NCBI GenBank assembly: GCA_030835405.1 | Contig: JAURPG010000097.1 | Coordinates: 8,479-72,478 of the forward strand | Direction of reading: 5' to 3' | DNA from: Gammaproteobacteria bacterium | GTDB lineage: Bacteria; Pseudomonadota; Gammaproteobacteria; Eutrophobiales; Eutrophobiaceae | DNA: 64,000 nucleotides | Shown: piece by piece, positions 19,605 to 21,347 of the stretch | Position numbering within the stretch: the stretch's first letter is position 1 | How the letters are laid out: every line of letters begins with the position of its first letter | Translations under genes and position numbers: made by a program | Notes under the pieces: model-generated | The model's input: only the letters and a program-made list of their open reading frames with translations | Told to the model about the DNA's origin: nothing | Database searches by the model: none

Positions 19605-21347
19605 GTGTTTAAAAGAGGATATGGACAAGTGAAAAAATTACTGACACTGGCAGGATTGCTATTGTTATCGATTCAGGTGAATGCCATTGTCATGGTTGTT
19701 GAAACGCCATTGGGTGACTTTCAAATTGATTTACTTGAAGATGAAGCCCCTAACACTGTTAATAATTTTATCAGCTATATCAATGATGGCAGTTTTGAAA
19801 ATTCTTTTGTCCATCGAAGCTCAACCGGGTTTGTTATTCAGGCGGGGTCATATACCTTGGTTGACGAGACTCTGGAAGAGATAGAGAAAAAGGACCCTGT
19901 TGTGAATGAGTTCGGTCGTTCCAATATCAGGGGCACGGTTTCAATGGCCAAGGTAGGTGGTGATCCCAATAGTGCCACCAGTTCCTGGTTTATCAATATG
20001 GCAGATAATTCAGAAAATCTGGATAATCAGAATGGTGGTTTTACGGTATTCGGTGTCGTCCTCGGTGATGGGATGGACATTGTCGATGAAATCCATGCCT
20101 TATCTCTATTTGATGCCTCAGAGACTTCAGGAGCCGATTTTACTGAGCTCCCCTTGATAGATTATTCAGGGACCGGTGTGATCACCGCAGAGCACCTGGT
20201 CTTTACCCAGATAAGTCTTCCCGATGATTTGAATGAAATTACCGATCTTGCCATTACCAAATCGGTAAATATCACTGCACCTGCCCCGAATAATTCCGTC
20301 GAGTTTACTGTGACGGTATCAAATGATGGGACTGATGACGCAAATAGTATTGAGATTACTGATCCATTACCGGAAGGTATGGAGGTTCCCACGGGTATGG
20401 CGCCATTCACCAGTCTTGGTAGCTATGATACTGATACCGGTGTCTGGTCTATTGACACCTTATCGGCAGGTTCAAATGCCACCTTAAACCTGCCGGCGAT
20501 TCCCCAGCAATTTGCCGACCCAGAATGTTTCGTAAACACAGCAGCGCTTTCTGACTTTGCCGGAGTGGATACAAATTTCGATAATAATAGTGCGAACTCT
20601 ACAGTATATGTAGGTGGTATCTCTACATGTTCAAACCTGAGACTTAGTGTTTCCACAGATACATTCTTTGAGGCACGATGTTCAACAAGCTTCTCAGATG
20701 CTTTTGATTTTTTTGTGGAGGTAACAAATGATGGTCCGGATACGGCAGAAAACGTGGTGGTTACCATATCGGGTAGCCTGGATAGTACAGCCCAGGACGA
20801 TATTGTCATTGATTTTGGGGAAATATTAGCCGATGCATCTAAGAGCCAGTTAAGAAGTTGGACGCTGGCGTGTAACAGGCCAGATAGTGTCGCAACTTAT
20901 TCAGTTGTTACGACAAGTGATAGTAATGTATCAACAGGTAGTGTTCTCTCTGTTACGGGTGAAGATGATGTGCCGGACAATCCACCGACAGATGATACAA
21001 GTGATAACCCTACACCTGATAACAATAACAATGGTGGCGGTGGTGGGTTATGTTTTATTGCCACGGCAGCATATGGTTCTTATATGCACCCTCATGTGAA
21101 AGAATTAAGAGACTTTCGTGACGATGTATTACTGCATACAGAAATAGGCAGGCGTTTTGTTGCCTTGTATTACCAGTATTCGCCACCTGTTGCAGATATA
21201 ATCGCTGATAATGTAGTGCTGAAAAGTATTACCCGGATATTGTTGACACCTGTGGTCTATGCTGTCATTTACCCGCTTGCTGCGTCATTTATTATACTGT
21301 TGTTAATGGGCGCACTGGTATTTAGGCATACACGCAAAGCCAGGTAA
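19605..21347 (+). CDS. secreted mosaic protein: cyclophilin-type peptidyl-prolyl isomerase domain + two DUF11 repeat domains + acidic Pro/Asn linker + poly-Gly + conserved C-terminal '[10 protein letters not shown]' module ending in a hydrophobic helix and basic tail
   Basis: GTG start with a GGGAGA ribosome-binding site and a signal peptide '...[10 protein letters not shown]'. Residues ~30-170 align block by block with PpiB ('[11 protein letters not shown]', '[13 protein letters not shown]', '[10 protein letters not shown]', '[13 protein letters not shown]', '[16 protein letters not shown]'). DUF11-like repeats follow ('[27 protein letters not shown]', '[18 protein letters not shown]'). The C-terminus reads '[34 protein letters not shown]...[33 protein letters not shown]'. 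Confidence 0.8.
   Translation: [580 protein letters not shown]

Follow-up and report, generated by a model that had tools for sequence, protein, structure and literature searches.

What is the conserved module that ends a cyclophilin-type protein encoded in a 64,000-nucleotide stretch of gammaproteobacterial DNA (GenBank assembly GCA_030835405.1, contig JAURPG010000097.1; the whole stretch is called the window below), and is it a signal that is read and processed by a sorting enzyme? A preliminary description presented the module as an undescribed sorting or anchoring domain, with the order of motif, hydrophobic helix and basic cluster that is known from PEP-CTERM, GlyGly-CTERM and LPXTG signals. 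Here we report that the tail is an ordinary member of NCBIfam family NF041770 ("CFI_box_CTERM") in its transmembrane (TM)-bearing subclass, and that nothing sets it apart from the family. The CFI box is already described as a sequence family and is functionally unstudied, and the module is no new discovery. As to its role, we favour, with a probability of about 0.6, an anchor cassette of the inner membrane, with the CFI domain as an autonomous module.

The NF041770 hidden Markov model matches residues 483-551 over its entire length (model positions 1-69 of 69), with a score of 101.6 bits (cutoff 40, E=1.5e-29), and is the sole match on the tail in an NCBIfam scan at E ≤ 1. It is passed by 73 of 73 related full-length proteins, and GenBank and RefSeq relatives bear the Prokaryotic Genome Annotation Pipeline name 'CFI-box-CTERM domain-containing protein', so the module is not undescribed. 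The tail and the family have in common the opening ten-residue motif, the LRxFRD and YYxxSPP blocks and the C-terminal position; in the window protein a TM helix and a basic tail follow, whereas other members end after the fourth helix of the domain, among them cytoplasmic-type proteins. Pfam has no model for the module and gives merely a sub-threshold TraP match. A full-text search of about 8 million papers and preprints returned no publication on the CFI-box family and no assigned function, and the myxosortase preprint on Cys-containing sorting signals (10.1101/2023.06.07.544157) makes no mention of CFI. The preliminary description had conceded that a match to a characterised family of known function would count against its proposal; the family is indeed named, but its function is not established. 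That the module is real and exceeds chance is borne out by the E value given above and by the degenerate DNA pattern for CFIATAAYG, which occurs once in the window against 0.00 expected (none in 100 shuffles). Nor is the motif limited to one protein: a profile built from 70 modules and searched against 1.84 billion representative proteins retrieved 30,766 clusters (50% identity) at E ≤ 1e-3, 24,325 at E ≤ 1e-10 and 3,516 at E ≤ 1e-30.

The module opens with C483-F-I-A-T-A-A-Y-G-S, 98 residues before the end of the protein. Conservation was computed on 301 non-identical modules, which were chosen by a motif regular expression, and this makes the values for the motif columns circular in part: C, A, T, A and A are conserved at 100%, F, I, G and S at 99%, and Y at 94%. 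Further along, V498, L501, R502, F504, R505, D506, L509, G515, V519, Y522, Y523, S526, P527, A530, I533, R544, L547, P549 and P557 are each conserved at 95% or more, and L501, R502, F504, R505, D506, Y522, Y523, S526, P527, A530 and P549 reach at least 96%. The Gly/Ser run ahead of the Cys is also part of the family consensus (Gly 68-78% at positions -1 to -5). Past P557 conservation collapses: the TM region carries less than 1.7 bits per column, with hydrophobicity alone being kept, and is followed by the Arg/Lys cluster. The block after the poly-Gly run that had looked invariant in the single sequence is thus near-invariant in these regex-selected modules, and the extent first given for the module (21040-21347) is right except that its start lies inside the Gly run.

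AlphaFold2, run on a 70-sequence alignment, predicts an all-helical structure (mean predicted local distance difference test score, pLDDT, 91.2; predicted template modelling score, pTM, 0.69), with a short helix over IATAAY (residues 485-490), helices at 496-507, 513-535 and 537-555, and the TM helix at 557-579. On this model the conserved 'signature' is predicted to form a four-helix domain, folded and about 75 residues in length, rather than a short tag. No relative of solved structure was found, the best hit of a sequence profile search of the PDB having E=0.1 and those of Foldseek E>6. The invariant Cys is about 71-75 residues from the membrane helix, further than the 60 or so residues estimated at first. 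A motif pattern scan, with one genome per species, gave at least 599 stretches (587 confirmed), of which the best 80 loci were examined. Of the 91 open reading frames (ORFs) with CFI modules from these 80 loci, all but one have the CFI box 94-124 residues ahead of the C-terminus. A hydrophobic 19-mer (Kyte-Doolittle score 1.4-2.95) is found at +62 to +79 after the box, and most of these ORFs have, beyond the helix, an Arg/Lys-rich tail in which acidic residues are few or absent. In the top 150 of the 30,766 representative clusters, 140 of 145 tails likewise measure 80-130 residues.

What precedes the module varies widely. About 70% of the full-length representatives have signal-peptide-like N-termini by a crude hydrophobicity test, and tabulation of the N-terminal domains, as the preliminary description had proposed, gave unrelated passengers among the 73 proteins. 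By Pfam these include DUF11 (14), subtilases (8), SBBP propellers (6), InlB-type repeats (6), ASH/HYDIN Ig-like domains (5), PKD (5), cyclophilin (4) and fn3 (4), and by NCBIfam the MXAN_6640-type HExxH metalloprotease (15) and the choice-of-anchor families D (5), U (5), Q (2) and L (1). Some passengers are homologues of NCBIfam families named for other anchors, namely ScyF (PEP-CTERM), SGO_0316 (LPXTG), MtsC (MYXO-CTERM) and LipL53 (lipoprotein). Since the exported passengers are diverse and unrelated, an anchoring role is supported for the cassette as a whole.

The TM helix is absent from several groups of members. In a metagenomic subfamily with InlB-type (Flg_new_2) repeats, which scores 91.5 bits to NF041770 and has exported-type passengers, a genuine stop codon follows helix 4 directly (…LLVDPVVWVVGATGDIWRN), with no basic tail and no TM helix downstream of the stop in any frame. 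A tblastn search of 72,556 plasmids gave 68 records, and nine encoded proteins with the CFI-type motif were inspected; none of the nine has a signal peptide or a TM helix, and all six that were scanned against NCBIfam pass the NF041770 cutoff with 55-87 bits. The Burkholderia cenocepacia protein WP_062911827 combines a cold-shock domain (PF00313) and a CxxC…CxxC arrangement with the CFI domain, the Haloquadratum walsbyi protein WP_052288770 has an Mrr_cat restriction-endonuclease domain and a WYL domain ahead of GGGSQ-CFI and adjoins a restriction endonuclease gene, and 5-kb plasmids of Acinetobacter lwoffii encode a TPR-like region joined to CFI. Small CFI proteins of about 140-150 residues are encoded on conjugative-type plasmids of Xanthomonas citri, Aeromonas hydrophila, Thioalkalivibrio and Burkholderia thailandensis, and further plasmid members are an RTX-repeat protein in Paracoccus and, in Haliscomenobacter, a protein that adjoins an Hsp70-family gene. 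In the plasmid proteins the motif is relaxed to C-[FY]-[IV]-A-[ST]-x3-G … LRx[FW]RD … YYxxSP. That the CFI domain ends TM-less plasmid proteins which, judged by their sequences, are of cytoplasmic type is one new point of this analysis.

The anchor cassette that we favour would consist of the four-helix domain of about 75 residues with its invariant opening motif, the non-conserved TM helix and a short Arg/Lys tail. In the window protein, the N-terminal signal peptide would take the cyclophilin-type peptidyl-prolyl isomerase (PPIase) and the two DUF11 domains through Sec, and the C-terminal helix with RHTRKAR would serve as a stop-transfer anchor, its basic tail being cytoplasmic according to the positive-inside rule. 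The product would be a type I inner-membrane protein with N-out/C-in topology, in which the flexible Asp/Pro/Asn/Gly linker would allow the passenger to swing in the periplasm, as a periplasmic cyclophilin held on an Ig-like stalk. The CFI domain would be folded on the outer face of the membrane, beside the helix, and most plausibly mediates self-association or docking to the membrane surface instead of serving as a cleavage tag. It is regarded as an autonomous module, and not as a short cleavage tag, because the same domain occurs without a TM helix in cytoplasmic-type proteins.

Several points weigh against the anchor cassette. The self-association or docking ascribed to the CFI domain may not hold, and the mature protein may be cleaved, lipidated or transferred to the outer membrane. 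Ten near-invariant residues, a lone Cys among them, kept across bacterial phyla and archaea, usually exceed the needs of a passive anchor or of packing, and the invariance of the motif suggests a conserved partner or a conserved chemistry. In addition, the 80 loci were picked by similarity to a TM-bearing module, so that the ratio of TM-bearing to TM-less members is not readable from them. The processing hypotheses are kept alive because the invariance of ten residues, including the lone Cys, is unexplained by any passive role.

The explanation closest to the preliminary description is a processed sorting signal, in which a dedicated enzyme would recognise the CFI box, modify or cleave the protein at the Cys and move the passenger to a lipid or envelope acceptor. 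Haft (10.1101/2023.06.07.544157) lists eight attributes of tripartite C-terminal sorting signals, and most are present here: the C-terminal position, the invariant opening motif, the TM helix and the basic cluster and, in the TM-bearing class, signal peptides, unrelated passengers and passenger homologues with other anchors (attributes 6-8). As to copy number, the window has one module, and some other genomes have 2-4 loci or tandem arrays of 2-3 genes. The '-CTERM' in the NCBI name suggests that the curator had sorting in mind, and the invariant Cys recalls the Cys-containing signals MYXO-CTERM, JDVT-CTERM, Synerg-CTERM and CGP-CTERM, which are handled by CPBP-family myxosortases (10.1101/2023.06.07.544157; PMC11980579). 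These signals resemble the CFI tail in being C-terminal, with an invariant Cys, a TM helix, an Arg-rich end, a signal peptide and many unrelated passengers, but they are short tags whose Cys motif lies directly at the TM helix, whereas about 70 residues of confidently folded four-helix domain separate the CFI Cys from its helix, and attribute 4, a small size with the TM helix directly after the motif in the middle of a short domain, is lacking. The likeness to GlyGly-CTERM/rhombosortase, PEP-CTERM/exosortase and LPXTG/sortase systems extends to the exported passenger, the low-complexity linker, the C-terminal signature with a Gly run ahead of it, the helix and the basic tail; the CFI tail nevertheless has no match to their models at E ≤ 1 and no GG, PEP or LPXTG motif beside the helix. 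A cognate enzyme was expected elsewhere in the genome, and no rhomboid, exosortase, CPBP (PF02517) or sortase gene is present in the window, the multi-TM ORFs of which encode MscS, Na+/H+ exchangers, an FtsX permease, an SSF symporter, MMPL and an LPG-synthase-like protein. The 62 multi-TM ORFs that lie no more than 10 kb from the CFI modules at the 80 loci show no enrichment of sorting proteases either: exosortases occur twice (near only 2 of the 80 loci) and rhomboid and CPBP proteins fall outside the 25 commonest families. The TM-less members (cold-shock, Mrr_cat plus WYL, and the InlB-type subfamily) would be unreadable by an intramembrane enzyme, and because the CFI domain occurs on cold-shock and Mrr-WYL proteins, a tag for an intramembrane sorting protease is unlikely. 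Of the tripartite logic first proposed, the motif, TM helix, basic tail and diverse exported passengers stand, while the folded four-helix domain and the TM-less cytoplasmic-type members do not fit it; a sorting signal is doubtful, and the claim of a cognate enzyme found no support in the window or within 10 kb of the 80 loci.

A wider proposal is that the CFI box is a compartment-independent module whose invariant Cys, at the boundary of the Gly run, would do covalent chemistry, so that the module would cleave itself or the passenger would be joined to a lipid or partner, by autocatalysis or with the aid of an enzyme; we consider this unlikely. Another proposal is self-processing by an N-to-S acyl shift at the junction of Gly run and Cys-Phe, the CFI domain cleaving itself off or transferring the passenger in any compartment without a partner enzyme. 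The Hedgehog 'G|CF' site and intein N-termini undergo such an N-to-S acyl shift. In the CFI family a flexible Gly run directly precedes the invariant Cys (the -1 residue is Gly in 73% of modules), invariant polar residues are on hand (T487, S492, R502, R505, D506, Y522, Y523 and S526), no partner gene was found near the 80 loci, and an enzyme-independent reaction would tolerate both exported and cytoplasmic-type, TM-bearing and TM-less occurrence. The likeness to the Hint domains of Hedgehog proteins and inteins nevertheless goes no further than the local sequence, Cys-Phe preceded by Gly at a domain boundary: Hint is beta-rich, of about 150 residues and with a conserved TxxH block, whereas the CFI domain is predicted to be all-helical, is about 75 residues long and lacks an invariant His (at position 497, His is found in 52% of modules). 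Other known autoproteolytic modules, such as SEA and GPS, are also beta-rich, neither Pfam nor NCBIfam gives a Hint or autoprocessing match, the -1 residue is variable (G, A, K, S or L), and there is no experimental hint of cleavage, all of which makes self-processing very unlikely. Least credible is the suggestion that the CFI module is a signal or partner for the ABC/FtsX/HlyD system encoded upstream, which would extract or export the tagged protein. The transporter genes, intact in the window, lie close by on the same strand, and MacB-type permease families account for 3 of the 62 multi-TM neighbour ORFs, but a DUF4159 gene and then a 317-bp AT-rich gap intervene between the operon and the CFI gene. 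The idea is effectively refuted by the closest relative among the 80 loci, L001 ('Candidatus Eutrophobius brisbanensis'; Gammaproteobacteria, Eutrophobiales), in which the CFI gene is intact (protein 81% identical over its full length) and the operon is decayed to remnants of the ABC protein (residues 1-147, 88% identical) and of HlyD (residues 310-398, 83% identical), with FtsX gone (L001:6392-7469). This loss is an internal deletion of about 3.5 kb, or it may be an assembly artefact of the metagenome-assembled genome (MAG); the abhydrolase, DUF4159, CFI, SSF, SnoaL, HAD and DUF1554 genes are syntenic and intact in L001 at 68-95% identity. The other 79 loci have no homologue of the window FtsX or HlyD protein, and the ABC ATPase has matches in five loci besides L001, one alone being clearly similar (39% identity). 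The upstream operon is not linked to the CFI gene, and the co-occurrence anticipated in the preliminary description is refuted.

A broader search for conserved neighbours, by all-versus-all BLAST of 2,464 ORFs from the 80 loci and the window, gave as largest clusters apart from CFI an HD-GYP response regulator (16 loci), a histidine kinase (14) and a 186-residue secreted protein (11). These reflect lineage-specific synteny (Nitrospirota, Geobacteraceae) and are not family-wide partners. No cluster of multi-TM neighbours spans more than three of the 80 loci.

The window contains one CFI module, and the layout of its gene is given in Table 1, together with the transporter operon and the TM-less members. 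The NCBI part of the public protein collection includes the exact 580-residue product, with its GTG start, as a called gene without a name. The PpiA and PpiB models of NCBIfam score 83-93 bits on the passenger, under their equivalog cutoffs. Of the two DUF11 copies, the first (residues 214-334) is strong and the second (residues ~363-467) weak, with 22.6 bits alone against a cutoff of 24.6. The codon for the invariant Cys is at 21051, and the TAA stop occupies 21345-21347. The opposite strand beneath the module has no ORF of 60 or more residues, an Rfam scan of 18000-24000 gave no match, promoter and terminator scans did no better than shuffles, and base composition is unremarkable. A lipobox reading of GGG-C was rejected, as there is no hydrophobic residue at -3, the -1 residue is variable and no signal-peptide h-region adjoins.

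Table 1. Location of the CFI gene and its parts, of the upstream transporter operon, and of family members that lack a TM helix. Positions are those of the window unless a locus label (L) precedes them.
Feature	Location	Strand	Basis or remark
ABC ATPase, double-FtsX permease, HlyD-type adaptor operon	14153-18457	+ (same strand as CFI gene)	1.1 kb upstream of CFI gene
ORF encoding CFI protein, 580 aa (580 codons)	19605..21347	+	GTG start, GGGAGA before start codon
Sec-type signal peptide, N-terminal	19605..19685	+	Read from sequence; alignment to the E. coli PpiA model begins at residue 1
Cyclophilin-type peptidyl-prolyl isomerase domain, aa 30-168, passenger	19692..20108	+	PF00160, 105 bits, E=5.6e-30
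Two DUF11 stalk domains (Ig-like, TIGR01451-type)	20244..21005	+	PF01345, 99 bits, 2 stretches
Low-complexity Asp/Pro/Asn-rich linker, poly-Gly end (GGGGGL)	20961..21050	+	Read from sequence
CFI-box domain proper, aa 483-557: predicted motif helix, LRDFRD helix, YYxxSPP helix, LxxxTRxLLTPVVY helix	21051..21275	+	NF041770 match, AlphaFold2, conservation logo
Predicted transmembrane helix, aa ~554-573	21276..21323	+	Best 19-residue Kyte-Doolittle window 2.47; modelled helix aa 557-579
Basic tail RHTRKAR (predicted cytoplasmic) and TAA stop	21324..21347	+	Read from sequence
InlB-type TM-less subfamily	L081:40-522; P0068, P0073, P0077-P0079, P0083, P0085, P0086, P0089, P0092, P0093		
Cytoplasmic-type CFI proteins, 78-87 bits	L083:3659-4240, L088:3233-4267, L084:919-1782		Plasmids NZ_CP015038.1, NC_008213.1, NZ_CP032111.1 (Burkholderia, Haloquadratum, Acinetobacter)
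Small plasmid CFI proteins	L085:3818-5422, L086:1385-2301, L087:3800-5050, L092:2800-3769		Common N-terminal '[SA]SE[IL]x5C[PE]' segment

Two other parts of the window may be mentioned. At 5318-10821, some 9 kb upstream from the CFI gene, there is a gene pair for TamA (Omp85 plus POTRA) and TamB, for which no link to the CFI module was found. On the minus strand, a 162-residue ORF at 24521-25009 is predicted to have three TM segments and gives no match in Pfam. Its C-terminal part resembles the beginning of an MscS-type beta domain, and the ORF may be a channel gene that has been truncated.

On the Xanthomonas, Aeromonas and Thioalkalivibrio plasmids a short PD-(D/E)XK gene stands one or two genes after the small CFI gene, and its product matches only the C-terminal part of the PDDEXK_1/Cas4 profiles (positions ~96-247 of 247). 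Judged from these profile matches, the pair could be a split Cas4-like nuclease, its N-terminal piece being fused to the CFI domain.

Other gene arrangements were also seen among TM-bearing members. In L043:548-2149, P0145, P0152, P0180 and P0243 a single ORF, with no stop codon between the parts, encodes a passenger, the CFI box, the TM helix, RRRR, a second signal-peptide-like helix and an outer-membrane beta-barrel of about 250 residues (PF13557, Phenol_MetA_deg, E=4.8e-10). These ORFs form four clusters, with the last domain 37-70% identical, and may represent a conserved fusion, or an in-frame coupled gene pair, joining a CFI protein to an outer-membrane barrel in Nitrospirota-type genomes. 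In P0101-P0104 each ORF contains two complete passenger-CFI-TM units, the second unit of P0101 opening with its own lipoprotein-type signal peptide.

The motif had been described as recurrent in environmental Gammaproteobacteria; it is recurrent, but its spread goes far beyond them, to other bacterial phyla and to archaea. The best 80 loci come from Gammaproteobacteria, Geobacteraceae/Desulfuromonadales, Nitrospirota, Syntrophales, Bacillota, Nitrospinae and one alphaproteobacterium, to which metagenomic matches add Clostridia, Omnitrophota and Aenigmarchaeota, and a plasmid match adds a haloarchaeon. Carriers in culture include Citrifermentans bremense R1, Geomonas propionica Red259 and Desulfoscipio geothermicus. 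Some genomes have multiple copies, with four loci on separate contigs in one Nitrospirales MAG and tandem arrays of up to three genes. Tandem CFI-box genes, two or three in number, are found at L071:1617-12506, L073:127-4409, L034:2567-12573, L066, L079 and L027 (Syntrophaceae, Smithella, Desulfoscipio, Nitrospirota). An orthologue with the PPIase-DUF11-CFI layout, 49% identical to the window protein, is encoded in a MAG labelled 'Klebsiella pneumoniae' (L017, CAMBTO010000033.1); this locus resembles that of an unclassified gammaproteobacterial MAG (L013), and its species label looks doubtful.

The residual interest lies at the level of the family and not of the locus: more than 30,000 clusters at 50% identity, in bacteria and archaea, have a near-invariant motif and a confidently predicted fold without a solved relative. 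The '-CTERM sorting signal' reading implied by the family name may be incomplete and not cover all members. If the invariant Cys were a processing or attachment site, it would define a new class beside sortase, exosortase, rhombosortase and myxosortase, and covalent chemistry by a compartment-independent CFI box would mean a new processing or anchoring system with a folded 'signal' of 75 residues, spread over more than 30,000 protein clusters and serving surface proteins and plasmid-borne cytoplasmic proteins alike.

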